NCBI RefSeq assembly: GCF_011045215.1
Contig: NZ_CP049201.1
Reading direction: 5' to 3' (one strand)
DNA from: Escherichia coli
GTDB lineage: Bacteria > Pseudomonadota > Gammaproteobacteria > Enterobacterales > Enterobacteriaceae
Length of the DNA stretch: 64,000 nt
The notes under the pieces were generated by a model. That model was not told where the DNA came from, searched no databases, and saw nothing but the letters and a program-made list of their open reading frames with translations. Positions 16,442-36,071 of this stretch are shown here, in pieces; within the stretch, counting starts at the first letter, position 1, and every line of letters starts with the position of its first letter. Both the position numbers and the translations under genes were made by a program.

Positions 16442-17385
16442 ATGACAAACTTCACGACCAGCACGCCGCATGACGCATTATTTAAATCTTTTCTCATGCA
16501 CCCTGACACCGCGCGGGATTTTATGGAGATCCACTTACCCAAAGATTTACGTGAACTGTGCGATCTCGACAGCTTAAAACTGGAATCCGCCAGCTTTGTC
16601 GATGAAAAATTGCGGGCGCTACACTCCGATATTCTGTGGTCGGTAAAGACCCGGGAAGGCGATGGCTATATCTATGTGGTGATTGAACATCAGAGCCGTG
16701 AGGATATTCATATGGCCTTTCGCCTGATGCGCTATTCCATGGCAGTGATGCAGCGCCATATAGAGCATGATAAACGCGGTTGCTACCGCTGGTCATCCCG
16801 ATGCTGTTTTATCACGGTAGCCGTAGTCCTTATCCCTGGTCCCTGTGCTGGCTGGACGAATTTGCCGACCCGACTACTGCACGGAAAGTTTATACTGCAG
16901 CGTTCCCGCTGGTGGATGTCACTGTCGTGCCAGACGACGAGATTGTGCAGCACCGCAGAGTCGCCCTGTTGGAGTTGATCCAAAAGCATATTCGCCAGCG
17001 CGATCTGATGGGGCTTATCGATCAACTGGTAATATTACTGGTTACAGAGTGTGCTAATGACAGCCAGATAACTGCGCTGTTAAATTACATTTTACTGACT
17101 GGCGATGAAGCGCGTTTTAATGAGTTTATCAGTGAACTTACCCGTCGAATGCCACAACAAAGGGAGCGAATAATGACGATTGCAGAGCGAATTCATAATG
17201 ATGGATGGCTGTTAGGGATGGAAAAGGGGAAAGAAGAAGGGGAACAACGCCTCCTTAGATTGCTTTTGCAGAACGGTGCGGATCCTGAATGGATACAACG
17301 ATATACTGGACTTTCGGCAGAGCAAATGCAGGCATTAGAGCAACCCTTGCCTGAAAGCAAGCGCGATCCATGGATCGAGTACTAA
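16442..17385 (+). pseudogene. rpnD: Rpn (YhgA-like, transposase_31 / PD-(D/E)XK) recombination-promoting nuclease, interrupted by a frameshift
   Basis: Two overlapping ORFs (16442..16978 and 16780..17385) in different frames together span an Rpn-family protein; the N-terminal part ([19 protein letters not shown]...YVVIEHQSR) continues in the second frame ([27 protein letters not shown]) after a frame change near 16775-16800. Confidence 0.7.
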
Positions 17386-19477: not shown

Positions 19478-21571
19478 ATGAAAGCCACAGAGGCTCGCCT
19501 ACTCGATTTTTTAAAACGTTCGCAGCAGTTTGTTATTCCCATTTATCAACGCACTTATTCATGGACCGGGCAACAATGTCGGCAACTTTGGGACGACATC
19601 ATTCGTGCCGGAAAGCGTGACGATATATCAGCACATTTTATCGGTTCGGTTGTTTATATAGAGCAGGGATTGTATCAGGTTTCTGGTATTTCTCCGTTGC
19701 TGGTCATTGATGGTCAGCAGCGGCTGACGACCGCAATGTTGCTGATTGAGGCTTTATCGCGCCATCTTGGCGAAGACGAAGTTTTTGATGGCTTTTCGGC
19801 AATGAAATTGCGTAATTATTATTTGCTCAATCCTTATGAGTCCGGCGAGAAAGGTTTTAAATTACTGCTGACCGAGACTGATAAAGACAGTTTACTGGCG
19901 TTAATAAAACAAAGACCAATGCCAGAAAACTATTCCCATCGAATAATGGAAAACTTTACTTTCTTTGATGAACAAATTGCCAAACTCGGTGATGACTTGA
20001 TCCCCTTATGTCGTGGGTTAGCAAAGTTATTAATTGTCGATGTGGCGCTTAATCGTGGTCAGGATAATCCGCAACTGATTTTTGAAAGTATGAACTCTAC
20101 CGGTAAGGCGTTAAGTCAGGCCGATCTGGTGCGCAATTTTATTCTGATGGGCCTCGAACCAGAGCATCAAACCCGGTTGTATGAAGATCACTGGCGTCCA
20201 ATGGAAGTCGCTTTTGGTCAGCAAGGTTACAGCGAATATTTTGACAGTTTTATGCGTCATTATCTGACGGTAAAAACGGGGGAGATCCCTCGGACAGATG
20301 AAGTCTATGAGGCATTTAAACTCCATGCCCGCAGCCAGCGTGTTGCTGAAAAAGGCGTAGATCGGCTGGTTGAAGATATTCACATCTACGCGGAGTATTA
20401 CTGTGCAATGGCATTGGGAAAAGAAAGTGACAAATCGCTTGCTACGGCTTTTCAGGATTTGCGCGAGTTAAAGGTCGATGTGGCGTATCCTTTCTTACTG
20501 GCGCTTTATCATGACTATAAAAATGACGATTTGTCTCACGAAGATTTCCTGAGCATAATTCGTTTAATTGAATCTTATGTTTTCCGCCGTGCAGTATGTG
20601 CAATTCCGACAAATTCTTTGAACAAGACATTTGCCACTTTTTATAAAGTTATTAATAAAGAAAATTATCTGGAAAGTATTCAGGTACATTTTTTGAATCT
20701 ACCTTCATATCGTCGTTTCCCCAACGATGATGAATTTAAACGGGAATTAAAAGTTCGCGATCTCTATAACTTCCGCAGTCGCAGCTACTGGTTACGACGA
20801 CTGGAAAACGATAAACGCAGAGAGCGCGTAGAAGAGTTTACTATTGAGCATATTATGCCGCAGAACGAAAATTTGTCGGCTAAATGGCGTGAAGAGCTGG
20901 GAAGTGACTGGCAACGCATTCATAAAGAATTATTGCATACGTTGGGGGATCTCACTTTAACGCGCTATAACTCCCGCTACAGTGACAGACCTTTCGCGGA
21001 AAAACGCGATATTGAAGACGGCTTTAAACATAGCCCGCTCTATTTGAATATCGGTCTTGGACAGTGCGAAAAATGGGATGAAGCCGCCATTCATGCCCGA
21101 GCCGATCGTCTGGCCGATCTCGCGGTTCAGGTCTGGCAAGCGCCTTCTCTTCCTGAAGAGGTTTTGGCTGTTTATCGGGGACAGCCTGAAAACAAAACCA
21201 GTTACAGCCTGAGTGATTATCCTTTTCTTGCTGATGGTTCGCATAGCCGGGTGTTATTCGATCATCTTCGCGATGAAGTTATGCGCCTGGACGCAGGGAT
21301 CACGCAGGAAGTATTGAAGCTATATATTGCGTTTAAAGCTGAAACGAATTTTGTTGATGTTGTGCCGCAAAAAAGCCGACTGCGATTGTCGCTTAATATG
21401 CAGTTTCATGAACTGGTCGATCCGAAAGGTATTGCCAAAGATGTGACAAATGTTGGGCGCTGGGGCAATGGCGATGTGGAAATTGGTTTCAGTGACCTCG
21501 CACAACTTCCTTACGTTATGGGATTAATTCGTCAGGCATTTGAAAAACAGATGGAGAGCGCGTTGGTCTAA
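19478..21571 (+). CDS. DUF262 (ParB-like NTPase) / DUF1524 (His-Me finger) fusion nuclease, GmrSD-family-like; candidate type IV (modification-dependent) restriction enzyme
   Basis: 697-aa ORF. N-terminal motifs IPIYQRTYSW, LVIDGQQRLTT and FESMNSTGKALSQADLVRNF are DUF262 hallmarks; C-terminal half contains EHIMPQ and GDLTLT (DUF1524-like), followed by a ~170-aa tail with no motif I recognise. Occupies the position of mcrBC in the K-12 immigration control region. Confidence 0.75.
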   Translation: MKATEARLLDFLKRSQQFVIPIYQRTYSWTGQQCRQLWDDIIRAGKRDDISAHFIGSVVYIEQGLYQVSGISPLLVIDGQQRLTTAMLLIEALSRHLGEDEVFDGFSAMKLRNYYLLNPYESGEKGFKLLLTETDKDSLLALIKQRPMPENYSHRIMENFTFFDEQIAKLGDDLIPLCRGLAKLLIVDVALNRGQDNPQLIFESMNSTGKALSQADLVRNFILMGLEPEHQTRLYEDHWRPMEVAFGQQGYSEYFDSFMRHYLTVKTGEIPRTDEVYEAFKLHARSQRVAEKGVDRLVEDIHIYAEYYCAMALGKESDKSLATAFQDLRELKVDVAYPFLLALYHDYKNDDLSHEDFLSIIRLIESYVFRRAVCAIPTNSLNKTFATFYKVINKENYLESIQVHFLNLPSYRRFPNDDEFKRELKVRDLYNFRSRSYWLRRLENDKRRERVEEFTIEHIMPQNENLSAKWREELGSDWQRIHKELLHTLGDLTLTRYNSRYSDRPFAEKRDIEDGFKHSPLYLNIGLGQCEKWDEAAIHARADRLADLAVQVWQAPSLPEEVLAVYRGQPENKTSYSLSDYPFLADGSHSRVLFDHLRDEVMRLDAGITQEVLKLYIAFKAETNFVDVVPQKSRLRLSLNMQFHELVDPKGIAKDVTNVGRWGNGDVEIGFSDLAQLPYVMGLIRQAFEKQMESALV

Positions 21572-22186: not shown

Positions 22187-23563
22187 TCAGGATTTTTTAC
22201 GCGAGGCTTTTTTACCCCCGTTGGCTGCGCGTTCAGCTTTGATTTTTTCCAGCAACGCGGCGGCGCTGTTTTCTCCGCTGATTAAATCCGGGTTTTCGGC
22301 CCGCCACTGGGCGGTGAGTTCTCCACGGAACGCTTTTGCCAGGATGGATTGCGTCAGGTTGTTGACGCGGGCTAAGGCGTTGTTGACCTGTTTTTCTATG
22401 GTGTCGGCGTAGGCGAAGAGCTGCTCGACGCGGCGAACGATTTCGGCTTGTTCATAGAGTGAATATAAAGGTACCATTATTGATGAAATTTTAGAAATAC
22501 TTAATGTATAGAGTCCTGCTCCAGATGTGGCGCGATTAATAATTTCTGCCTTACCTTGTGCAGACATTAAATAGAAAAGGAGAAACCTTGGAGAAATTAT
22601 TTCTCTATTTGCCCTAACTTTTATTAAATGGTTTTGATGTACGCACTCTTTGATTTCATCACGCCATAGTGCAGCTCGACCAATTTGATCAAGACTACCA
22701 TTGCCTTCAACTATTAATAAATCTTCATACTCTAATGATACACGATCCAGTTCTTTTTGTTGAACTCCGATTTCGGAAATATCTTCTAATCTCAATTCAT
22801 TTTCATAGACATTTGCCACACGCAAATATGGAACTTGCAACTCAAAATTATTACGTTTCGAGTTTTTTGTAAGACCGCCAATCACTTGGGCTATTTGACT
22901 AATATTGAAATAATTAATTGGGGAGATATTTGTAAGTTTCCCACTTACAGCCGCAGCCAATACCGCCTGACGAAAACGTTTCATGATTTGTGGGATTTTC
23001 TCAAGGCGTGCTTTGGTGCTGTCTACTTGCGCCAGCAGCGTATCGAGTTTTTCCGCAATTATTTTTTGCTCGGCAAGTGGTGGCAACGGAAGTAGGGTAT
23101 CTTGAAGTGTCCTGGAAGAAAGATGCTTCACCGTAACCGAGGACGTATTTGCATTGATTGCGGATAAATATCCTGGTAAGGCATGATAGAAAAATCTTTT
23201 ATTGTATTTGTCTTCCTGAACTTCGATTTTACATACTCGTTGATTTAACAGAGCGGGCTCCGAGCGCCATATAGTTGTATTAAAATCACCATCCATTCCC
23301 ACGATTAAGTCTTCGGGATATACCCAATATCCCTCAGGAATTTGCCCCGAGTAATAAGTCGATGTATTACCTTTAAGAACATCACGAATTCTAATTAATG
23401 GTACACCTTCTTTACGATTATTAAATTCTGCCGACTTAAAAGCAAAACCGTTTGTGATGTTTGCTACGGAATCCATTGGAATACGTAACCAGCTCTCATG
23501 GATTGAAAGTAACCCATTGATATTTTGCTCAATTAATTCTTTTGATGTTGAGTTGAAACTCAT
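22187..23563 (-). CDS. hsdS: Type I restriction-modification specificity subunit HsdS (type IA frame, divergent TRDs)
   Basis: 458-aa ORF; central conserved region (LAEQKIIAEKLDTLLAQVDSTKAR) and C-terminal region (EQAEIVRRVEQLFAYADTIEKQVNNALARVNNLTQSILAKAFRGELTAQWRAENPDL) match my memory of EcoKI HsdS, whereas the two variable domains are AT-rich and different. Confidence 0.85.
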   Translation of the reverse strand: MSFNSTSKELIEQNINGLLSIHESWLRIPMDSVANITNGFAFKSAEFNNRKEGVPLIRIRDVLKGNTSTYYSGQIPEGYWVYPEDLIVGMDGDFNTTIWRSEPALLNQRVCKIEVQEDKYNKRFFYHALPGYLSAINANTSSVTVKHLSSRTLQDTLLPLPPLAEQKIIAEKLDTLLAQVDSTKARLEKIPQIMKRFRQAVLAAAVSGKLTNISPINYFNISQIAQVIGGLTKNSKRNNFELQVPYLRVANVYENELRLEDISEIGVQQKELDRVSLEYEDLLIVEGNGSLDQIGRAALWRDEIKECVHQNHLIKVRANREIISPRFLLFYLMSAQGKAEIINRATSGAGLYTLSISKISSIMVPLYSLYEQAEIVRRVEQLFAYADTIEKQVNNALARVNNLTQSILAKAFRGELTAQWRAENPDLISGENSAAALLEKIKAERAANGGKKASRKKS

Positions 23564-25149
23564 TCCTTCACCCCACCAAACGCTTCTTCCAGCAACTGAC
23601 GCTGCGCATCCGCCTCATCGCTCGCCCCCAGTTCACGCATCAGCGCATCCAGTTCAGACAGCGCCTGCACCAGCTCGCCCATCGCTTCTGCCGCTAATAC
23701 ATCCGGCTCCGGCAGGCTGTCGGCATCAATACTGTCTTTATCTTTCAGCCAGGAGATATCCAGCGAATCGGATTTCGCGGTGCGGATCCACTCGCGGCTG
23801 AACTTACGCCAGCGGCTGGTAGCCAGGTGCTGGTCGGTGTTTTTGTTCTCTTCGCTGTCGGCAACTTCCGTCTCTTCGGCGTTAAAACTCCATTCCCCTT
23901 CACTACGCGGGCTTAAACCGTGCGGGTCTTCGCCATACACGCGCTCAAACGGCTGCAAATACTCGTCGGTAAACGGCGTGCGTTTACCAAAGCTCGGCAT
24001 ATTGGTCCGCAGGTCGTACACCCACACGTCATCGGTGCAGTTCTTATCCTGATGCGGGTTCGCCACTGTACCTTTGGTAAAGAACAGCACGTTGGTCTTC
24101 ACGCCCTGCGCGTAAAAAATACCGGTCGGCAGACGTAGAATGGTGTGCAGATGACACTTATCCATCAGGTCACGACGAATGTCGGTGCCTTTGCCGCCTT
24201 CAAACAGCACGTTATCCGGCACCACCACCGCCGCACGACCGCCGGGATGTAGCGTTTCGATAATATGCTGCATAAAGCACAACTGTTTGTTGCTGGTCGG
24301 GTGAACAAAGGTGCGGGTAATGTTGGTGCCTGCGGCGCTGCCAAACGGCGGGTTAGTGGCGACAATATGCGCCTTCGGCAGGTTTTCGCCGTCGCTACCC
24401 AGGGTGTTGCCCAGACGGATTGCGCCGCCGTGGTCGAGGTTGCCTTCAATATCGTGCAGCAGGCAGTTCATCAGCGCCAGACGACGGGTGCCGGGCACCA
24501 GTTCGAGGCCGATAAACGCGCGGTGGATCTGGAAATCCTGCGTGTCGCCATCAAGGTCGTCCAGATCGTTAGTCTGCGACTTAACGTAGCGGTCGGCTTC
24601 AATCAAAAAGCCCGCCGTACCTGCTGCCGGGTCCTGCACCACTTCGCGCGGCTGCGGTTTCAGCAGATGAATAATGGTTTTAATCAGCGGACGCGGGGTG
24701 AAGTACTGGCCCGCGCCCGACTTGGTTTCGTTCGCGTTCTTCTGCAACAGCCCTTCGTACATATCGCCGAAGTCATCGCGCGACTTACCGTGCGCACCGT
24801 TGTACCAGTCCAGTGAATCCATATTGCTGACCAGTTCGGTCAACTGTTTCGGCTGGGTAATGGTGGTGTTGACGTTCTGGAACACCGCCTGCACCAGCTT
24901 TTGATTGTCGGCGCCCAGATGCACCAGCAGGTTACGGTAGAACTGCAACTGCTCCTGGCCGATGCGGGATTTCAGGTCATCCCAGCGGTAGCCTTCCGGC
25001 AGGTATTCCGCTTCCTGCCCGGTCTCTTTACACATTTTCAAAAACAGCAGCGAGGCGAGTTCATTGACGTAGTTTTGATAGGAAACGCCGCCATCGCGCA
25101 GGTTGTCGCACAGCTTCCACAGCTTGGCGACCAGATCGTTATTGTTCAT
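23560..25149 (-). CDS. hsdM: Type I R-M DNA methyltransferase subunit HsdM
   Basis: 529-aa ORF, N6-adenine methyltransferase with NPPF motif (ATNPPFGSAAG); 4-bp overlap with hsdS. Confidence 0.9.
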   Translation of the reverse strand: MNNNDLVAKLWKLCDNLRDGGVSYQNYVNELASLLFLKMCKETGQEAEYLPEGYRWDDLKSRIGQEQLQFYRNLLVHLGADNQKLVQAVFQNVNTTITQPKQLTELVSNMDSLDWYNGAHGKSRDDFGDMYEGLLQKNANETKSGAGQYFTPRPLIKTIIHLLKPQPREVVQDPAAGTAGFLIEADRYVKSQTNDLDDLDGDTQDFQIHRAFIGLELVPGTRRLALMNCLLHDIEGNLDHGGAIRLGNTLGSDGENLPKAHIVATNPPFGSAAGTNITRTFVHPTSNKQLCFMQHIIETLHPGGRAAVVVPDNVLFEGGKGTDIRRDLMDKCHLHTILRLPTGIFYAQGVKTNVLFFTKGTVANPHQDKNCTDDVWVYDLRTNMPSFGKRTPFTDEYLQPFERVYGEDPHGLSPRSEGEWSFNAEETEVADSEENKNTDQHLATSRWRKFSREWIRTAKSDSLDISWLKDKDSIDADSLPEPDVLAAEAMGELVQALSELDALMRELGASDEADAQRQLLEEAFGGVKE

Positions 25150-25225
25150 TGTGAGTTCCGTAAATTAAGCAGCGGCCCAAATTTATCGGGCCGCAGAAGA
25201 AGAAATTGCCGGGAATGATACCGTG

Positions 25226-28200
25226 TCAGGCCAGCTCGTCCCAGATGTAATCGCTGAATTTGCCCAGCAGGGTATCGAGATTATCGTCAAAGGTTCTTTG
25301 CAGCATCGCCTTCCCGCCGCGACGGTGGAAGTTGCCGGTTTTGAACACATCGTCGTCGAGCACCACTTTCTCTTTCAGCGCCTGCGCTAAACGATCGAGC
25401 CAGCTTAATTGCTCGCTGCTCCAGTCGTTTTCGCCCTTAATGCGCGTCAGCGCGTGATCGACACGTTCCTCAAACGGTTTCAGCGCATCTCCCACCGCAG
25501 CGCGGCGAATATGACCGATCAGCCGGGCGGCGATATCTTCATTGCGCGTCTCTTTCCACGCTTTGCGCAGGGAAGATTCCTCAAAGTGCTGGCGGTCAAA
25601 CCACTCCTGTAGCTCGACCAGCCCTTTACGGGTGAGATCGCGCGGGCGATTGATCACCGCCTGCAATGCCGGCTGTGCGTTCGGGGAACGTTGCACCAGC
25701 GAGTCAAAGGCTTCGAGGAAATCCTGCGGTGTGTCGTAATCACCGTACAGCGATTTTACGCTCACCACTTCATCGTCGATATCGAGGAAGATCGGCGCAT
25801 CATTCAGGTTATTGATGTCGGTTTTCAACTTTTCCAGACGGGCGATAAAGCCAGGCAGTTTGTTAAAGACCTCGGCGCTCCAGTGCGGCCCTTTTTCCCG
25901 CAGGCGCGAGGCGAAGCCGTTAAAGTTCACCCCCGCCGCATCCTGGCATAGCTCATCCAGACGACGCACCTGTTTATCTATCGTTTCGCTGCGGTCACGG
26001 TTAAACGTGGCCAGGCCGACGATGCGCTGGAGCTTCGCCACCAGTTGTTCATGGCTGTGCTCGGCAAAGCTGCGGCCGTCCGCTTCGGTGATTTTATAGG
26101 TTTCTGAATCGGTAATTTCGTTGACCAGCGTTTGCAGTTCCACCTTCGGACGCACCACCACCGGACGCATGGTGTCGACGCTCTCCAGCGTGCTGTAGAT
26201 ATCGACACAGTCGAAAATCTTAAAGCTGGTTTTATTCACGTCCGGGCATAAGCGTGTGGCGCGGCCTTTCATCTGCTCGTACAGAATACGGCTGCGTACT
26301 TTACGCAGGAACACGATGTTACAGATCGACGGAATATCGACGCCGGTCGTCAGCAGGTCGACGGTTACCACGATATTGGGCAGCCGCTCTTTATTGAAGC
26401 GGGTGATCATGGTCTGCACTTTGCGCGCGTCTTTATCGGCATCACCGGTGATCTTGATGATCGCGTCGTGCTCCAGTTGCGGATACTTTTTCTTGAACGC
26501 GGTACGCAGCTCTTCCACCACCATATCGGCATGAGCATTGGTGACGCAGAAGACCAGCGTTTTTTGCGACCCGGTCGGATCAAGGTAATTGGTGAGTTCA
26601 TTACAAACGGCGCGGTTAAACGCCGGGATCACCAGACCACGGTTAAAGTCGGCGACCTCAAAATCCTGATCGTCTTCCAGGGTGTCATTGATCACTTCTC
26701 CCTGCGGGCTGATGCGCTCTACCTGTTCGCCTTTGGAGAGATAAACCCCTTCCTGGGCGTTGCGGGTGGTGATTTGAATCGGCGGATCCTGGTCGATCAG
26801 AAAACCGTCGATAACCGCGGTACGGTAGGTATAACGGTAAACCGGCTCGCCGAAAATCTGCACCGTATGCAGCGCCGGGGTGGCGGTGAGGGCGATTTTT
26901 ACCGCATCGAAGTGATCGAGAATGCGACGATAGGCAGAAACGTAATCCAACTGACTGCGGAACTGCAGTTCGCCTTCGGTCTGCTCTTTATCGAGAATGT
27001 AGCCACGATGCGCTTCGTCAACAACGATACAGTCATAACGGGCCACCGGCATTGGTTCATCTGATTGCAGGGTGCGTTTCACCAGCGACTGTACGGTGGC
27101 AACGTGAATTTTGGTGCTGTCTTCCGGGAATTTATCCGTCAGCCCTTTAATGTCGAAAATGCTGTTGAAGGTGTCGCCGTTAATACGCGTATCTTCAAAC
27201 GCGCCCAGCGCCTGCTCGCCAAGAGAACGGCGATCCACAAGGAAGAGAATGCGTTTAAAACGCTGAGACTGGATCAGGCGGAACATCATGGCAATTGCGG
27301 TGCGGGTTTTACCAGTACCGGTCGCCATCGCCAGCAGGATCTCTTGTTGACCCTTGACGATTGCCTTTTCAACCGCGCGGACAGCATCTTCCTGATAATA
27401 ACGCAGGCCCAGCTCGCTCATGCCAGGGTTGTCGGCAAACCACTGATTCTGTTTTTGCGGTTCGCTGCCGAGCATTTCCAGCAGCTCTTCCGGGCGATGC
27501 CACTCGGGTAAGGCTTTCGACATATTGCGGGTATCACGCACGTCGCGATACCAGATGCCGCTTTTAGTCTTCATCGCTGCGCGATATTCGCGCCCGTTTG
27601 TGGAGTAGCAGAAGGGGATTTTAAACCGTTGTTGGCCGCTGGTGTCCTGCCAGCTGGTTTCATACTCCGGCACCGCTTCATGCACTTCATCCGGTGAGTA
27701 ATGCTCAAGCAAGGTTTCCCGCAGGAAGCCATTATCGAAACATTTACTGTAGCGATACGACTCATTGAGCTTGGCGGGAACGTCGATATTTTTACGTTTC
27801 GCCTCTACCACCGCGATGGGTTTGAGGCCGACAAACAGCACATAATCCGCAAAGCCCTGATTACCCATTTCATCTTTCCCGGTCGGCCATTCGGCAATGG
27901 CTTTATTGACGCCGGGTTCCGGGCGCGCGCCTTTGGAGAAACGCAGGGTTTTGCTGTCGGCCTGCCAGCCCGCTTTACGCAGTTGGGCATCAATCAGGAA
28001 GCGGCTCTCTTCTTCGCTGAGGTTGAGCGTGCGCTTGATGGCCTGATCGGTAATTTCTTTGTGGTAAGCCTTACGTTCCTGTTCTGTCTGTTTGGCCAGC
28101 TCCGCGTTTTTCTCGGCGAGCTGTGCTTCAAGCGCCGCAAGGCGGGCCTGGGTTTGCGCTTCGGTTTCCTGCTGTTTACCTTCCAGAATGGCGATATAGC

Positions 28201-28738
28201 CGTTCAGGGCAACCAGCTTTTGCTGCTGCGCTTCGACTTCTGCCTGACTCTGCGCTTTTTCTCGCACCTGCTGTTCAAGCTGTTGTTTTAGCGTCAGCAC
28301 TTCCTGGTGATAGAGGTTTTCACCACGTTCCGGCAACACAAACACCGGCACCGAGAAGTCATAATCTTTAGTGACCAGACGGTAGTACCAGACAGCCAGG
28401 CGAAACCCGAGTCGCAGGCACATCTGGGCATCGTCGAGATCGTTATGATATTCGTGCACCGCCTGGTTACCAATGCGGCGTAATTTGTGGAATACAGAGA
28501 GAATGTTGTCATCAACGAAGGCGATTTTGCCGAGTTCGCGCAGGAGATCGTGTTGATTCTCACAAGGGGGGATGTTGAGTAACAGACCAAGATGTTTCGC
28601 TGTGGCTTCGCCAAACATACGCATTTTAATCAGCGTCGTGTTGGGATCATCCGGGTAGTTATTCTCCGCCGCACAGGCGATGGCATAAGTGAAGTCGTTG
28701 ACGCCCTTCAGGAATTCAAAATTGGATTTATTCATCAT
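25226..28738 (-). CDS. hsdR: Type I R-M restriction endonuclease/helicase subunit HsdR
   Basis: 1170-aa ORF with SF2 helicase motifs (LLAMATGTGKTRTA Walker A, DEAH-like VVDEAHR) preceded by an N-terminal nuclease region. Confidence 0.9.
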   Translation of the reverse strand: MMNKSNFEFLKGVNDFTYAIACAAENNYPDDPNTTLIKMRMFGEATAKHLGLLLNIPPCENQHDLLRELGKIAFVDDNILSVFHKLRRIGNQAVHEYHNDLDDAQMCLRLGFRLAVWYYRLVTKDYDFSVPVFVLPERGENLYHQEVLTLKQQLEQQVREKAQSQAEVEAQQQKLVALNGYIAILEGKQQETEAQTQARLAALEAQLAEKNAELAKQTEQERKAYHKEITDQAIKRTLNLSEEESRFLIDAQLRKAGWQADSKTLRFSKGARPEPGVNKAIAEWPTGKDEMGNQGFADYVLFVGLKPIAVVEAKRKNIDVPAKLNESYRYSKCFDNGFLRETLLEHYSPDEVHEAVPEYETSWQDTSGQQRFKIPFCYSTNGREYRAAMKTKSGIWYRDVRDTRNMSKALPEWHRPEELLEMLGSEPQKQNQWFADNPGMSELGLRYYQEDAVRAVEKAIVKGQQEILLAMATGTGKTRTAIAMMFRLIQSQRFKRILFLVDRRSLGEQALGAFEDTRINGDTFNSIFDIKGLTDKFPEDSTKIHVATVQSLVKRTLQSDEPMPVARYDCIVVDEAHRGYILDKEQTEGELQFRSQLDYVSAYRRILDHFDAVKIALTATPALHTVQIFGEPVYRYTYRTAVIDGFLIDQDPPIQITTRNAQEGVYLSKGEQVERISPQGEVINDTLEDDQDFEVADFNRGLVIPAFNRAVCNELTNYLDPTGSQKTLVFCVTNAHADMVVEELRTAFKKKYPQLEHDAIIKITGDADKDARKVQTMITRFNKERLPNIVVTVDLLTTGVDIPSICNIVFLRKVRSRILYEQMKGRATRLCPDVNKTSFKIFDCVDIYSTLESVDTMRPVVVRPKVELQTLVNEITDSETYKITEADGRSFAEHSHEQLVAKLQRIVGLATFNRDRSETIDKQVRRLDELCQDAAGVNFNGFASRLREKGPHWSAEVFNKLPGFIARLEKLKTDINNLNDAPIFLDIDDEVVSVKSLYGDYDTPQDFLEAFDSLVQRSPNAQPALQAVINRPRDLTRKGLVELQEWFDRQHFEESSLRKAWKETRNEDIAARLIGHIRRAAVGDALKPFEERVDHALTRIKGENDWSSEQLSWLDRLAQALKEKVVLDDDVFKTGNFHRRGGKAMLQRTFDDNLDTLLGKFSDYIWDELA

Positions 28739-28925
28739 TGTTATTAATCCATTGCTGTGTGGGCCTGTCCAAATATTTAAGGCCCATAGCGCCTTATCTT
28801 AGCTTTCTGTACCTTTCCGGGCAATGACCACGGTCACAGCAACTGACTCATTTCTAACGTGTTCGTCTATTTTGGTAGTGTTATAGTAGCCGAAAAACAT
28901 CTACCTGATTCTGCAAGGATGTACT

Positions 28926-29839
28926 ATGACGGTTCCTACCTATGACAAATTTATTGAACCTGTTCTGCGTTATCTGGCGACAAAACCGGAAGGTGCAGCC
29001 GCGCGTGATGTTCATGAGGCTGCCGCGGATGCATTAGGACTGGATGACAGCCAGCGAGCGAAAGTCATTACCAGCGGACAACTTGTTTATAAAAATCGTG
29101 CAGGCTGGGCGCATGACCGTTTAAAACGTGCCGGGTTGTCGCAAAGTTTGTCGCGTGGCAAATGGTGCCTGACTCCTGCGGGTTTTGACTGGGTTGCGTC
29201 TCATCCCCAGCCAATGACGGAGCAGGAGACGAACCATCTGGCCTTCGATTTTGTGAATGTCAAACTTAAGTCACGGCCGGATGCCGTCGATTTAGATCCG
29301 AAAGCCGACTCTCCCGATCATGAAGAACTTGCAAAGAGCAGCCCGGACGATCGGTTAGATCAGGCGCTAAAAGAGCTTCGTGATGCGGTGGCTGATGAGG
29401 TTCTGGAAAACTTATTGCAGGTTTCTCCTTCGCGCTTTGAAGTCATTGTTCTGGATGTTTTGCATCGCCTGGGGTATGGCGGCCACCGTGATGATTTGCA
29501 GCGTGTTGGCGGTACTGGAGATGGTGGCATCGATGGTGTGATATCGCTTGATAAACTTGGCCTGGAGAAAGTTTATGTTCAGGCAAAACGTTGGCGAACA
29601 CTGTAGGCAGGCCAGAATTACAGGCATTTTACGGCGCACTGGCTGGGCAAAAGGCGAAACGTGGGGTGTTTATTACCACTTCTGGATTTACGTCTCAGGC
29701 GCGTGACTTTGCTCAATCCGTCGAGGGTATGGTGTTGGTTGATGGGGAACGCCTGGTGCACTTAATGATCGAAAACGAAGTAGGGGTTTCTTCACGTTTG
29801 TTGAAGGTGCCGAAACTGGATATGGACTATTTTGAGTGA
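28926..29839 (+). pseudogene. mrr: Mrr modification-dependent restriction endonuclease, apparently frameshifted
   Basis: Two ORFs (28926..29606, 226 aa; 29591..29839, 82 aa) in different frames jointly cover a ~304-aa Mrr; the frame changes near 29595-29606 inside the catalytic domain (…VQAKRW then stop, versus ANTVGRPELQAFYGAL… in the other frame). Confidence 0.7.
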
Positions 29840-29845
29840 AATATC

Positions 29846-29876
29846 AGGCCGGATGCGGCTGCGCCTTATCCGGCCC
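29846..29876. repeat. REP element
   Basis: gccggatgcggctgcgccttatccggcc palindrome. Confidence 0.75.
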
Positions 29877-29884
29877 ATAACCCC

Positions 29885-30841
29885 TTACTTCCTCAACCCC
29901 GCAAACGCCGCCCGAATCTCATCCTCCGGCAGCTGAATCCCGATAAACACCATCGTGCTATGCGGTTTTTCATCGCCCCACGGGCGGTCCCAGTCGGCGC
30001 TGTAGAGGCGCTGGACGCCCTGGAACAGCAGGCGGTTAGGTTCGCCGTCAATCCATAGCATCCCTTTGTAACGCAGTAGTTTATCCGCCGATTCCAGCAG
30101 CAGGTTTTCCATCACCCGGGAAACTTCGCTGATATCTACCGGGTAATCCAGTTCCACCACAATCGACGAAATATCGTTTTGTTTATCCGCGATAAAGTGG
30201 AAACGCGGTTTGGTGCTGACGACGTTCTCTTCCAGCATAAAACCGTTGGTGTTGAACAGCAGGCCCAGGTCGATGTCGCCGTGGGTAACTGTGTAGATCG
30301 GTGCACGGGCGTTGATGCGCGCCAGGCGTTCGCGCAGTTTTTCTGCTTCGCCTGCGACGTCGGTTTTGGTCAGCAGAATACGGTCGGCGTAGCCCACCTG
30401 GGACTGGGCGATGGTGAACTGGTTCATCTGCTCATCGGCATGTACCGCATCCACCAGCGCAATCACGCCGTCCAGCAGGTAGCGCTGGCATAAAATCTCA
30501 TGGGAGAAAAAGGTCTGAATAATCGGGCCGGGATCGGCCATGCCGGTGCATTCAATCACCAGACGATCGAACTGAATATTGCCCTTGTCGAGATTATCCA
30601 GCAGGTCGAGTAGTGCGTCTTCCAGCTCGTTGGAGCGCGAACAGCAGATGCAGCCGTTGGTCAGCGTTTTGATCTGCGTGGCGCGGTCGCCAATCAATTG
30701 ATCATCAACGGAGACTTCGCCGAATTCGTTTTCAATCACGGCAATCTTGTAGCCGTGTTGTTCGTTAAGAATATGGCGCAGCAGGGTGGTTTTGCCCGCG
30801 CCTAAAAAACCGGTGAGTAGGGTAACTGCAATCGGGTTCAT
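29885..30841 (-). CDS. yjiA: CobW/P47K-family (COG0523) GTPase
   Basis: ORF 29885..30925 trimmed to MNPIAVTLLTGFLGAGKTTLLRHILNE... (318 aa); Walker A and CxCC metal motif (GCICCS). Confidence 0.85.
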   Translation of the reverse strand: MNPIAVTLLTGFLGAGKTTLLRHILNEQHGYKIAVIENEFGEVSVDDQLIGDRATQIKTLTNGCICCSRSNELEDALLDLLDNLDKGNIQFDRLVIECTGMADPGPIIQTFFSHEILCQRYLLDGVIALVDAVHADEQMNQFTIAQSQVGYADRILLTKTDVAGEAEKLRERLARINARAPIYTVTHGDIDLGLLFNTNGFMLEENVVSTKPRFHFIADKQNDISSIVVELDYPVDISEVSRVMENLLLESADKLLRYKGMLWIDGEPNRLLFQGVQRLYSADWDRPWGDEKPHSTMVFIGIQLPEDEIRAAFAGLRK

Positions 30842-30851
30842 GCTCTCTCCA

Positions 30852-31055
30852 TTAACAACAGCGCATACCGCCTTTACCATCGCCGCCGTAGCGCGCGTTC
30901 TGGCGTTCGCGGAAGAATTCTTCATAGCTCATGTACGGCTTGTCGGGATGGTTGGTCTTCATATGCTCGACGTAGTTGTCGTAGTCTGGAATGCCAATCA
31001 ACATCTTCGCCGCCTGGCCGAGATATTTTTTTGCCTGTCCTAAGTTACCAAACAT
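30852..31055 (-). CDS. yjiX: DUF466-family small protein
   Basis: ORF 30852..31181 trimmed to [32 protein letters not shown]... (67 aa); the longer ORF would read through REP sequence. Confidence 0.8.
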
Positions 31056-31103
31056 TTTGCCTTCCAGATATGCGTAAAGCCCGGAAGGTCCGGGCTGGGG
31101 ATT

Positions 31104-31182
<79 letters not shown>

Positions 31183-31185
31183 CGG

Positions 31186-33336
31186 TTAGTGGTGCGAAGA
31201 GATCTTCACGCCGCCTTCCGGGATTGGAACGTACGGTGTTTCTTTGTCAGTACGTTTGTCGCTGTTACGCACCGCAAGCCAGGTTTTGAAACCGTAGAAG
31301 ATGATGCTGTACACCACAATCAGGAACAGAATACTCAGGCCTGCGTTGGTGTAGTTGTTCACAACGATGTGGTTCATGTTGGCAATCTGCTGCGCCGTCA
31401 GGTCAGTACCGTTAGAAATCTTCTCTTTGTACTGGCTTGCCATGTAGAAGAAGCCTTCCATCTGCGGGTTGGTGCTGAACAGTTTCAGACCCAGCGCCCA
31501 GGTGGTGCAGATAAGCAGCCATACAGCCGGAACAACAGTTACCCAGATGTATTGGGTGCGCTTCATCTTAATCAGCACAACGGTGCCCAGTACCAGCGCT
31601 ACGGCTGCCAGCATCTGGTTGGAGATACCGAACAGCGGCCACAGGCTCTTAACGCCGCCCAGCGGATCGACCACGCCCTGATACAGCAGGTAGCCCCACA
31701 GACCCACACAGCCCGCAGTACCGATGATACCGGCAACCAGAGAGTCGGTTTTTTTCAGGAACGGGATGAAGTTACCCAGCAGGTCTTGCAGCATAAAGCG
31801 GCCAGAACGGGTACCCGCATCCAGCGCGGTCAGGATGAACAGGGCTTCGAACAGAATACCGAAGTGATACCAGAAGCCCATGTCAGCCATCGGCAGCACT
31901 TTGTGGAACACATGAGCGATACCTACCGCCAGCGTCGGCGCACCACCTGCACGGTTCAGGACAGAAGGCTCACCAATGTCTTTCGCGGTTTGCAGGATCT
32001 GCTCTGGCGAAATCACGAAGCCCCAGGAGCTGACGGTCGCCGCCGCGTGTGCGGTAACGTCTTTCAGCTGCGCCATGATGATCGGCGCGTTCTCGCCACC
32101 CATTTCATGCAGGTTAGGCATGGTGATGCCAAGGCCAGCAGGCGGGGTGTTCATCGCGAAGTAAAGACCCGGTTCGATGATGGACGCTGCAACCAGCGCC
32201 ATAATCGCCACGAAGGACTCCATCAGCATTGCGCCGTAGCCGATGAAACGCGCGTCGGTTTCGTTAGCCAGCAGTTTCGGCGTCGTACCGGAAGAGATCA
32301 GCGCGTGGAAGCCAGATACCGCACCACAGGCGATGGTGATGAACAGGAACGGGAACAGAGCGCCTTTCCACAGCGGGCCAGTACCGTCAATGTACTGGGT
32401 CATCGCAGGCATTTTCAGTTCCGGGTTCAGCACCACGATACCCAGCGCCAGGCCGACGATAACGCCGATTTTCAGGAAGGTTGCCAGATAGTCGCGCGGT
32501 GCGAGGATCAGCCACACCGGCAGCAGTGCGGAAACAAACGCATAGCCAATCAGCGCGAAGGTAATGGTGGTGTCTTTAAAGGTCAGTGCCGGACCCCAGT
32601 ACGGATCGTGAGCAATCACGCCACCGAAGTAGATAGAGGCAACCAGCAGCACGATACCAATGACAGAGACTTCACCTACACGCCCCGGACGAATAAAGCG
32701 CATATAGATACCCATAAACAGCGCAATCGGTACGGTTGAGCAAACGGTGAAGACACCCCACGGACTTTCGGCCAGGGCTTTAACCACAATCAGCGCCAGG
32801 ACGGCAAGGATGATGATCATGATTAAGAAACAGCCAAACAGCGCGATAGTCCCCGGTACTGGTCCCATCTCTTCTTTGATCATCTCACCGAGAGATGCGC
32901 CGTTACGGCGAGAGGAGATAAACAGCACCATAAAGTCCTGTACCGCACCGGCCAGTACTACCCCCGCCAGCAGCCACAGCGTGCCAGGTAGGTAGCCCAT
33001 CTGCGCGGCGAGAACCGGACCAACCAGCGGACCAGCACCGGCGATAGCGGCGAAGTGGTGACCAAACAACACGTAACGGTTGGTCGGAACGTAGTTCAGA
33101 CCGTCGTTGTTAATAACCGCAGGCGTCGCGCGCGTGGGGTCGAGTTTCATCACCTTCTGGGCGATATACAAACTGTAGTAGCGATACGCCACCAGATACA
33201 CCGACACCGAGGCGACCACGATCCACAGGGCGCTGACGTGCTCCCCCCGACGTAATGCAACTACCGCGAGGCAGAATGCACCGATGATTCCGAGAATCAC
33301 CCAGGGTATGTGCTTGAATAGTTTTTTCGTATCCAT
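31186..33336 (-). CDS. btsT: CstA-family pyruvate/H+ symporter
   Basis: ORF 31186..33351 trimmed to [19 protein letters not shown]... (716 aa); polytopic membrane protein; synteny (yjiY). Confidence 0.85.
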
Positions 33337-33728
33337 AGTAAAACCTGGCATTTTACTCGTCGTCTTTTGGCTTACAGGTGCGGCAGCTGCGTTCGTTCAC
33401 CCCTGTCACTTACTGTTGTAAGCTCCCGGGGATTCACTCACTTGCTGCCTTCCTGCAAATCAAAATCCATAGAGTAATTTGTTAATCATAGGCCGAAGCC
33501 GTTCTAGGTTTGCGTTGCGTTTGAGGAGGTAAATTGACCGCTATCCTGCAGTGATGTTGCCAGAGATACGCGCGCGTAAAGTAAGGTAAATAACTGAGTG
33601 GTTATTTTAGGGATGTAAGCGGTCAGGAATGGCGGTGAGCGGTTGGGCAAGAATTATTCATCGGGTGGATATGTGATTGAGATCACAATAAAAATGCCCC
33701 TTCGACGAATGCGTGAAGGGGCTGGAGC

Positions 33729-34241
33729 TTAAATCGCAGCTTCCATTTCCAGCATCACCGGATGGAAACGGCGTTTAAAGTAGATAAGTCCGTGACCTTC
33801 TGCACTGAGGATGATGTTTTTAATCTCCACCAGATAGACCAGATGTGTGCCAATTGCCTGCACATCGCGGATCTCACCTTCAAGACTGGCCAGCGAACCT
33901 TTCAGCACCGGCTGCGCCAGCGGACCTTTTTGCCAGCATGAGAGGCTAAAACGCTCTTCCATCGCCATGCCTGTCATGCCCGCGAAGTGGCGCGCCATCA
34001 GTTCCTGCTCATGATTGAGGACGTTGACGCACAACTTGCCGTTGCCCTGAAAAACCGGGTTCATCGCACTGTTGGCGTTAATGCACACCATCAGCGACGG
34101 TGGTGTATCCGTGACCGAGCAGACGGCCGTTGCCGTAATCCCGCATTGTCCGGCGTCGCCCTCGGTGGTGATAATATTTACCGCTGCCGACAGGCTGGCC
34201 ATCGCGTCACGAAAGCGCAGGCGTTGTTCATCTAATTGCAT
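33729..34241 (-). CDS. hpaC: 4-hydroxyphenylacetate 3-monooxygenase, flavin reductase component
   Basis: 170-aa ORF, flavin reductase-like; sits immediately downstream of hpaB. Confidence 0.85.
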   Translation of the reverse strand: MQLDEQRLRFRDAMASLSAAVNIITTEGDAGQCGITATAVCSVTDTPPSLMVCINANSAMNPVFQGNGKLCVNVLNHEQELMARHFAGMTGMAMEERFSLSCWQKGPLAQPVLKGSLASLEGEIRDVQAIGTHLVYLVEIKNIILSAEGHGLIYFKRRFHPVMLEMEAAI

Positions 34242-34258
34242 CTTAACCTCCTGCTGCG

Positions 34259-35821
34259 TTATTTCAGCAGCTTATCCAGCATGTTGATATCGTCGTTGTT
34301 GTGCAGGTGCGGCACAGTCCAGCCGTTCTGGTCGTATTCCGACAGGCAGCGATCAACCATCGCCATCATCTTGTCCATATTGCCGGAGCTTTGTGCCTGG
34401 CGCAGACATTGCAGGCGAATCTCATCCTGGCTACCGGAGTAGTTGATTTCATACAGCTCGTGACGACCACCAAATTCGCTGCCAATGGCGTCCCACATCA
34501 GTTTGAGGATCTTGATGCGCTGGACGTGATCCATACCGTTCGAACCGCGCACATACTTCGCCAGATACTGGTCGATCTGCGGATTGTTCAGGTCACGGGC
34601 ACTGGAAGGGAGGTAGATCAGGCCACTGGTAACGTTGCGTTCGATAATGTTTTTGATCTTCGCGTAGGCCATTGGTGCCAGTACGCGATAGGTTTGCAGT
34701 GCGGCATGATCCGGTAAATAAGCCCCGTTGACCCACGGCGTCGCTTCTGAACACATCGAGTCACTCAATGCCCAGAAGGTGTTGCACCACGCCACCACTT
34801 CACCGAGATCGGCCTGCACACCACGGAACTCCAGGGTGCCGGTACATTCGAGTGATTTTTTCAGCAGTGCCGTGATGAAGTCGAGTTTCACTGCCAGGCG
34901 CACACAGGCTTGCAGCGGATACATACGGGCAAAACCGCCTTCCATCGTCCAGCGACGGCAGCGATCGAAATCGCGGTAGATCAGCACGTTTTCCCACGGG
35001 ATCAGTACGTTATCCATCACCAGGATCGCATCGTTCTCATCGAAGCGGCTGGAGAGCGGGTAGTCGTACGGCGAGCCGGTAGCACCCGCGACCATCTCAT
35101 AAGAGGCGCGGGAGATTAATTTCACGCCATCGGCATCCATTGGCGCAACGAACATCAGTGCGAAGTCCGGGTTTTCGCCCATCACTTGTGCCGAGCCGAA
35201 GCCAATCATGTTGTAGTGAGTCAGCGCCGAGTTGGTGGCAACCACTTTCGCACCACTGACGATAATCCCGGCGTCAGTCTCTTTTTCCAGCTTGATGTAA
35301 ACGTCTTTCACTTTATCGGTCGGCAAATGACGATCGATCGGTGGGTTAACAATCGCGTGGTTAAAGTAGAGGCCAGTTTCCTGAATACGGGTGTACCAGT
35401 TACGGGCGTTCTGCTCGAACTGACCGTAAAAGCCCGGATTCGCGCCCAGTGCGCAACCGAAAGCGGCTTTGTAGTCTGGGGTGCGACCCATCCAGCCATA
35501 GCTCAGGCGTGACCACTCAGCGATGGCGTCGCGTTGCTGGCGCAGGTCGTCGGCACTTTTCGCCACGCGGAAGAATTTATGGGTATAGCCGCCGCTGCCG
35601 GTGTCGGTGTTCCAGCACAGAGAGTCCTGCATTTCCGGTTTGTGTAGCGCGTCGTACAGTTGGGCAACAGACGCTGCCGCATTACGAAATGCCGGATGAG
35701 TAGTGACGTCTTTCACTCGCTCGCCATAGATATAGATCGCGCGACCATCCTGCAGGCTTTTCAGATACTCTTCCCCGGTGAACGGACGTTGGGTACTGGC
35801 GCGGAAATCTTCTGGTTTCAT
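34259..35821 (-). CDS. hpaB: 4-hydroxyphenylacetate 3-monooxygenase, oxygenase component
   Basis: 520-aa ORF matching my memory of HpaB. Confidence 0.9.
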   Translation of the reverse strand: MKPEDFRASTQRPFTGEEYLKSLQDGRAIYIYGERVKDVTTHPAFRNAAASVAQLYDALHKPEMQDSLCWNTDTGSGGYTHKFFRVAKSADDLRQQRDAIAEWSRLSYGWMGRTPDYKAAFGCALGANPGFYGQFEQNARNWYTRIQETGLYFNHAIVNPPIDRHLPTDKVKDVYIKLEKETDAGIIVSGAKVVATNSALTHYNMIGFGSAQVMGENPDFALMFVAPMDADGVKLISRASYEMVAGATGSPYDYPLSSRFDENDAILVMDNVLIPWENVLIYRDFDRCRRWTMEGGFARMYPLQACVRLAVKLDFITALLKKSLECTGTLEFRGVQADLGEVVAWCNTFWALSDSMCSEATPWVNGAYLPDHAALQTYRVLAPMAYAKIKNIIERNVTSGLIYLPSSARDLNNPQIDQYLAKYVRGSNGMDHVQRIKILKLMWDAIGSEFGGRHELYEINYSGSQDEIRLQCLRQAQSSGNMDKMMAMVDRCLSEYDQNGWTVPHLHNNDDINMLDKLLK

Positions 35822-36071
35822 GTCGACCTCTACAGTATTAATCGGAATACGATTGTTAATTTTGTGTGTTGTTTTTGTTATTCAATTGAAGCTTGCAGGG
35901 GCGATTACGGGAAGAGACTTTTGGGACAATGGCTGGTACTTTTCAGGTCGGGTACGGTTTTGTGATCGAGGTCGCTTTTAGCTATTTTTGACGTTACTAA
36001 ATCCCCTTGCTCCAGGCGGAGAAAGAGGAATAGCAGGTGATGCCTGGTTTCCCGTTAAGGCTAAGGGATTT

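Follow-up and report, generated by a model that had tools for sequence, protein, structure and literature searches.

In this E. coli isolate the mrr gene, which encodes the type IV methylation-dependent restriction endonuclease EcoKMrr, very probably carries a genuine and evolutionarily very recent loss-of-function allele. Within the 64-kb window, by which we mean the whole stretch of DNA analysed, the mrr locus lies on the plus strand at 28926..29839 and would measure 915 nt, encoding 304 aa, were a single missing A restored. The ORF listing divides it into two overlapping pieces on the same strand. The 5′ fragment ORF (28926..29606, +) encodes 226 aa, consisting of native residues 1-223 followed by out-of-frame R-T-L, and so ends ...VYVQAKRWRTL. 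The 3′ fragment ORF (29591..29839, +) encodes 82 aa, consisting of a TTG start, then Ala, then native N225-E304; its translation begins M-ANTVGRPELQAFYGALAGQKAKRGVFITTSGF.... Codon Q224 (CAG) has lost its A, between bases 29595 and 29596, and the shifted frame creates a premature TAG stop at 29604..29606 (+).

Comparison with intact alleles identified the lesion. We found mrr in 951 of 5,426 complete E. coli genomes; the best matches (BL21, REL606, strain C and many wild isolates) shared 99.9% identity with the window copy and measured 915 bases, compared with 914 in the window. The window matched the BL21/REL606/C allele WP_000217934.1 at all 914 bases, one gap aside. Aligned with BL21(DE3), the gene showed one difference in 914 nt, TGG CAG AAC in BL21 corresponding to TGG C-G AAC in the window. 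The lost A stood alone between C and G, outside any homopolymer. The pattern of two ORFs does not reflect chance: the copy is that of a known gene, identical but for the loss of one base. A preliminary description of the locus had reported mrr as split into 226-aa and 82-aa ORFs, with the first frame ending at TAG 29604-29606, the remainder continuing in a different frame from 29591, and an intact gene expected to encode ~304 aa; the ORF listing and the restored length agree with it on each of these points. The comparison with intact mrr alleles for which it had called revealed one missing A and otherwise complete identity. It had located the break at 29585-29610, and a frameshift does lie there; the alignment refined its position to 29595/29596, within codon Q224 and eight bases ahead of the TAG.

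The window spans the E. coli immigration-control region (hsdSMR, mrr, yjiA) and its surroundings. Comparison with ES5 and BL21(DE3) gave the gene order kptA, iatD, yji genes, a 697-aa GmrSD gene, symE, hsdS, hsdM, hsdR, mrr, yjiA, yjiX, btsT, the hpa operon, tsr, lgoTRD, opgB, dnaCT and prfC. The hsdS-hsdM-hsdR-mrr-yjiA-yjiX-btsT arrangement matches that of both BL21(DE3) and ES5, and mrr is adjoined by hsdR and yjiA as in other E. coli, which places it at the usual immigration-control location. Besides mrr, about 50 genes of the window were full-length and in a single frame, as judged by tblastn with the 51 ES5 proteins that have a window counterpart. DNA alignment of the window with ES5 revealed no other frame-breaking indel in genes intact in ES5, and no IS element was encountered in the window. 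A Shigella-like, pseudogene-rich genome or a low-quality assembly was considered as the setting of the lesion and is not supported, given the ~50 intact genes and the absence of IS elements among the features encountered.

Several further features of the region were recorded. At 19478-21571 (+) the window carries an intact gene for a 697-aa type IV restriction enzyme with GmrSD_N, GmrSD_C and DUF5655 domains, in place of mcrBC; in ES5 this GmrSD gene is broken into two pieces. Since GmrSD and hsdRMS are both intact in the window, the isolate retains one type IV system and the type I system while losing Mrr. Deletion aside, mrr shows 100% identity to the allele of E. coli B and C, and the flanking hsdM, hsdR, yjiA and btsT genes are 96-98.8% identical to those of BL21. 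Identity of mrr was at least 99% in 707 of the 951 genomes, making it far more uniform across E. coli than its neighbour genes. Judged from sequence comparison of 28926-29839 with its flanks (23050-35920), this uniformity appears in line with a recent lateral spread of mrr. Elsewhere in the window, a gene for a pentapeptide-repeat protein at 8596-10803 (-) differs in length between strains, with products of 632 to 769 aa across the loci and, relative to ES5, indels summing to multiples of 24 nt.

We then considered what remains of the protein. The winged-helix Mrr_N DNA-binding domain is present in the truncated product (PF14338 at residues 6-91 of the 226-aa ORF; E 1.7e-20, 73 bits against a cut-off of 29.5). 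The nuclease domain, PF04471 (Mrr_cat), is halved. Positions 2-58 of its 115 profile positions match residues 164-224 of the first ORF and positions 59-115 match the 82-aa ORF (E 4.9e-18), so that no single polypeptide of ~304 aa contains the complete domain, which is split at profile positions 58/59. The active site of Mrr is of the PD-QxK type, in a wH + Mrr-cat architecture (PMC12707154), and D203A is a published catalytic mutant (PMC5435990). The catalytic D...QxK motif (29532..29588, +) lies entirely upstream of the break, with the codons of D203 (29532-29534, +), Q219 (CAG, 29580-29582, +) and K221 (AAA, 29586-29588, +) all in frame in the 5′ ORF. In 25 orthologues sharing 69-91% identity, D203, Q219, R222 and W223 were invariant and K221 nearly so, and in 109 homologues D203, Q219 and K221 were each at least 90% conserved. 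A further 34 invariant positions in the 25 orthologues fall between T226 and F303, downstream of the break. Also downstream is H279, and the H279Y substitution changes Mrr activity and the response to M.HhaII (PMC3973329). The window gene is thus the same gene as the EcoKMrr gene of K-12, B and C, in the same place between hsdR and yjiA, and shares its Mrr_N + Mrr_cat architecture and its D203/Q219/K221 motif; whereas EcoKMrr is intact, the window copy is split into 226 + 82 aa, its nuclease domain halved by the deletion of the A of codon 224. Full length is the rule in the family: of the closest 120 homologue clusters (70-99% identity), nearly all consist of one ORF of 302-310 aa, and most of 150 more distant homologue representatives are full-length, at about 290-325 aa.

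The part removed by truncation was examined on a structural model. A first AlphaFold run, based on 25 close orthologues, gave pLDDT below 50 in the nuclease domain and the model was discarded; a second, based on 109 diverse homologues from an exhaustive search, reached a mean pLDDT of 89.9, with 84-98 over residues 1-110. In this model, strands 201-207 (with D203) and 215-221 (with Q219 and K221) precede the break, which sits two residues past the catalytic K221, after strand 215-221. Helix 229-241, strand 246-251, helix 257-265, strand 269-272 and helix 274-283 follow it. Foldseek identified the nuclease domains of MspJI and AspBHI (PDB 4F0P/4F0Q, 4OC8) as the nearest solved folds, at E 4e-5 to 6e-4 and over 146-168 aligned columns, that is, the whole domain. 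These enzymes share the D...QxK active site with Mrr (PMC12707154) but are only about 18-22% identical to it and have an SRA-like rather than a winged-helix DNA-binding domain; we used them purely as a structural reference for the missing part. Sequence searches of the PDB with Mrr gave no match with a single sequence and, with a profile, only LlaBIII at E = 0.21, which is not significant.

With the A of codon Q224 lost, translation from the normal start stops three codons later and yields a 226-aa product. As judged from the model, this product keeps the DNA-binding domain and the catalytic side chains, that is, the winged-helix domain, the long helices and the two strands bearing D203 and Q219-x-K221. 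It lacks about half of the fold core, since the PD-(D/E)XK core is completed by the next helix, two beta strands and a further two helices. Conservation and predicted structure strongly suggest that such a product could neither fold nor cut: the half-domain would not form an active nuclease, and the tetramer/dimer switch controlling Mrr would be lost. No strong Shine-Dalgarno sequence was seen, on reading the sequence by eye, before the TTG of the 82-aa ORF, and this ORF is probably not translated to a useful level; it would be an unexpressed or useless remnant. The single missing base almost certainly inactivates Mrr in the isolate. The preliminary description had placed the break inside the PD-(D/E)XK domain and considered mrr probably non-functional. 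The split of Mrr_cat at positions 58/59 and the removal of predicted helices and strands confirmed the former, and the loss of half of the predicted core, with 34 invariant positions and H279 downstream, supports the latter. At the level of the cell, DNA with Mrr-eliciting m6A or m5C marks would no longer be restricted, and neither high pressure nor expression of a foreign methyltransferase would any longer trigger the Mrr-dependent SOS response. These phenotypes (methylation-dependent restriction, and SOS induction by M.HhaII, Type III Mod or high pressure) have been defined previously (PMC5435990, PMC3973329, PMC3152355); wild-type EcoKMrr itself is without any described in vitro activity (PMC12707154).

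The age and polarity of the deletion were established from sister strains, retrieved as assemblies carrying the window's exact HsdR or HsdM proteins. Five were obtained (GCA_910665095.1, GCA_013049645.1, GCA_012161625.1, ERR3329136 and SRR8297627). Four sisters are 99.95-99.97% identical to the window in the region, and GCA_012161625.1 and the longer ERR3329136 locus are ~99.7% identical, the lower value stemming from a divergent patch between 13.9 and 17.8 kb. In 5/5 sister assemblies mrr retains the A and is an intact 304-aa gene, and the A of codon Q224 was present in 19/19 other E. coli loci with a match at the site. The deletion is therefore derived and private to the isolate. Among the fetched loci it was common only to contigs of the Logan assembly of SRR11014969. 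Two of these contigs show 100% identity to the window across 13.6 kb and 7.4 kb, deletion included, indicating that the window and SRR11014969 represent the same isolate. Searches with a 51-mer spanning the deletion junction returned nothing from the 5,426 complete E. coli genomes, nor was the junction found among GTDB species representatives or JGI metagenomes. Likewise, the exact 226-aa and 82-aa products each occurred on a single contig among about 15 billion proteins, and that contig was from Logan SRR11014969. Since mrr carries no further private substitution, the pseudogene is young. The deletion arose on the terminal branch of this one isolate, the strain sequenced in SRR11014969.

The isolate carries other private changes, which we called within 35 kb (1-35148) by comparison with GCA_910665095.1, its closest sister, using the remaining loci as outgroups. 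These comprised 7 SNPs, two 1-bp deletions and one 6-bp deletion, or about 3e-4 per bp. The SNPs, a mixture of transitions and transversions, were nonsynonymous in 5 of 6 coding cases (iatD T1729S and K344N, gmrSD N491D, yjiA V182I and hpaB R346C); the remaining two were a synonymous change in btsT and an A-to-G substitution at 28789. The deletions were the mrr ΔA, a ΔC at 16777 in rpn, and a 6-bp in-frame deletion at 10416 in the pentapeptide-repeat gene. All private changes that fall inside the Logan contigs, among them the mrr deletion and four private SNPs, were reproduced there. The HpaB R346C variant was unique among about 15 billion proteins. Position 28789 lies between hsdR and mrr, 137 bp ahead of the mrr start, within a small hairpin (28778-28796); it is A in 19/19 other loci, and the G of the isolate was reproduced in the Logan contigs. 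The rpn gene (16442-17385, +), of the Rpn/YhgA-like type (Transposase_31, PD-(D/E)XK), thus carries a second private frameshift: the ΔC at 16776/16777 (GCCGG to GCGG) leaves ORFs of 178 aa and 201 aa. The C is retained, and with it an intact ORF of 314 aa, in the sisters and in about 24 other E. coli loci. In ES5, rpn is frameshifted elsewhere, at 16668. The excess of private changes, in what is a small sample, suggests a long or mutator terminal branch (or a mutagenised strain), or lower-quality data.

Disruption of mrr is not confined to this isolate. At three loci (Logan ERR3328040, SRR2070766 and SRR9105377), W80 is replaced by a stop through either G239A (TAG) or G240A (TGA), and these W80-stop alleles were present on 24-30 contigs from many sequencing runs and in at least two allelic backgrounds. 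In a further locus (Logan SRR28357615), mrr diverges after codon 257 (nt 771 on) into unrelated …TAGATTCTACGTCAGTACTTCAAAAAGC, and related contigs end there; this junction suggests that the gene may be interrupted by an insertion element. Like the window mrr, the W80-stop and codon-257 alleles are independent disruptions in wild isolates and in the same genomic context. They differ from it in being nonsense mutations or foreign sequence, several of them found in many samples, whereas the window allele is a 1-bp deletion found in one isolate. Laboratory restriction-minus hosts (e.g. HB101/RR1 and DH10B-type strains, with Delta(mrr-hsdRMS-mcrBC)) have the same expected Mrr-minus phenotype (PMC5379014). 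These hosts carry large IS-mediated or engineered deletions of the whole region, RR1 for instance a ~20-kb IS-mediated deletion of the entire immigration-control region (PMC5379014), whereas in the window hsdRMS and the 697-aa GmrSD gene are intact and only mrr was struck. HB101/RR1 was also considered as the source of a known 'mrr' mutation on a B-type allele and rejected, given the ~20-kb deletion there and a window hsdR only ~97.5% identical to the B-strain gene.

Could the missing A be a consensus error, the mrr of the isolate being intact? The preliminary description had reserved the case of a sequencing or assembly indel, and some features would fit it. Only one read set contains the deletion allele; private changes are in excess in the isolate, with deletions accounting for 3/10 and nonsynonymous changes for 5/6 of coding SNPs, as errors would give; and the rpn deletion, known from the window assembly alone, falls in a CC dinucleotide. 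Against this, a different assembler (Logan, de Bruijn) reproduces the mrr deletion, although, should both assemblies derive from a single run, the data are not independent. Across 21 kb the Logan contigs are in 100% agreement with the 64-kb window, every private change therein included. Such exact agreement argues for accurate reads, since noisy reads would not yield it from two assemblies. Moreover, the deleted A lies outside a homopolymer (C-A-G) and about 50 other genes are unbroken across the 64 kb. The lesion is thus found neither in an error-prone context nor among many broken genes, the only other frame-breaking indel being that of rpn at 16777. We consider an artefact very improbable on these grounds. 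A different proposal accepts the deletion and holds that the gene still functions, either by programmed or leaky -1 frameshifting or as a split nuclease of 226-aa and 82-aa subunits. The downstream frame is indeed open (only from 29555 on), so that any -1 slip within 29555-29603 would produce a protein of 304 aa, and, on reading the sequence by eye, the A-AAA run at 29585-29588 could permit a single-tRNA slip leading to ...QAK-TLA-NTVG...; for a split enzyme, the TTG start of the 82-aa ORF overlaps the end of the first ORF. But the overlap 29555-29603, which runs from AAA CTT GGC CTG GAG AAA to GCA AAA CGT TGG CGA ACA CTG, contains no X-XXY-YYZ heptamer, its only repeat being the A4 run, and a slip there would replace the invariant R222 and W223. 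The RNA of 29580-29680 has a folding energy of -21.7 kcal/mol, weaker than the mean of -24.6 for shuffled sequences (z = +1.0), and the frameshift is conserved in no homologue and no sister strain. The lack of a slippery heptamer, of a stimulatory RNA structure and of conservation together rule out recoding. As for a split enzyme, the break cuts the core sheet of the predicted fold and no convincing ribosome-binding site was seen for the TTG. We therefore rejected programmed frameshifting and the split enzyme alike, continued function by either route being hardly credible.

If the loss of mrr is real, it may have been neutral or selected. Selection would have operated if the isolate had acquired a methyltransferase with Mrr-eliciting marks (a Type III Mod, for example, or an enzyme of plasmid or phage origin) and survived by losing mrr. 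There are precedents: Mrr is genotoxic in combination with StyLTI Mod, ED1a Mod or M.HhaII, and in the laboratory the conflict between Mrr and a methyltransferase is resolved within generations by mutation of one partner (PMC3152355; PMC3973329). Natural mrr null alleles also recur, as the W80 stop produced by two mutations in several backgrounds and the interruption by foreign sequence indicate, and the change at 28789 is a second private mutation close to the gene. However, the sole methyltransferase in the 64-kb window is the resident hsdM, which is common to the mrr-intact sisters, and the isolate carries many other unselected-looking private mutations, including another frameshift. Given so many private changes, chance is sufficient to account for the loss of mrr, and the frameshift needs no special selective explanation; we regard selected loss as unlikely. 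In a more explicit form of this idea, which we hold to be improbable, the acquired enzyme would have made the isolate's own chromosome a target of Mrr, with the mrr frameshift as the escape. The frameshift in rpn, a neighbouring PD-(D/E)XK nuclease gene, might then be part of the same escape from self-inflicted DNA damage. Were adaptive loss true, this would be a case from nature in which the antagonism between Mrr and a methyltransferase was settled on the Mrr side, in a clone with mrr-intact sisters.

Taken together, these results describe an ordinary, recent and private frameshift pseudogene, known in kind, whose allele is absent from the collections searched. Beyond annotation and strain phenotype the mrr lesion is of little consequence, and it represents no new biological feature. 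For annotation, the locus should be described as one mrr pseudogene and not as two restriction-endonuclease genes. As for phenotype, the isolate is predicted to be Mrr-negative, and would thus be more permissive to foreign m6A or m5C patterns and lack Mrr-dependent SOS induction under pressure. Its near-identical, mrr-intact sisters would provide a clean natural isogenic pair for testing Mrr outside K-12. Together with the W80-stop and insertion alleles, the deletion adds one more case to the repeated loss of mrr in natural E. coli, which fits the described status of mrr as a cryptic, potentially genotoxic accessory gene.
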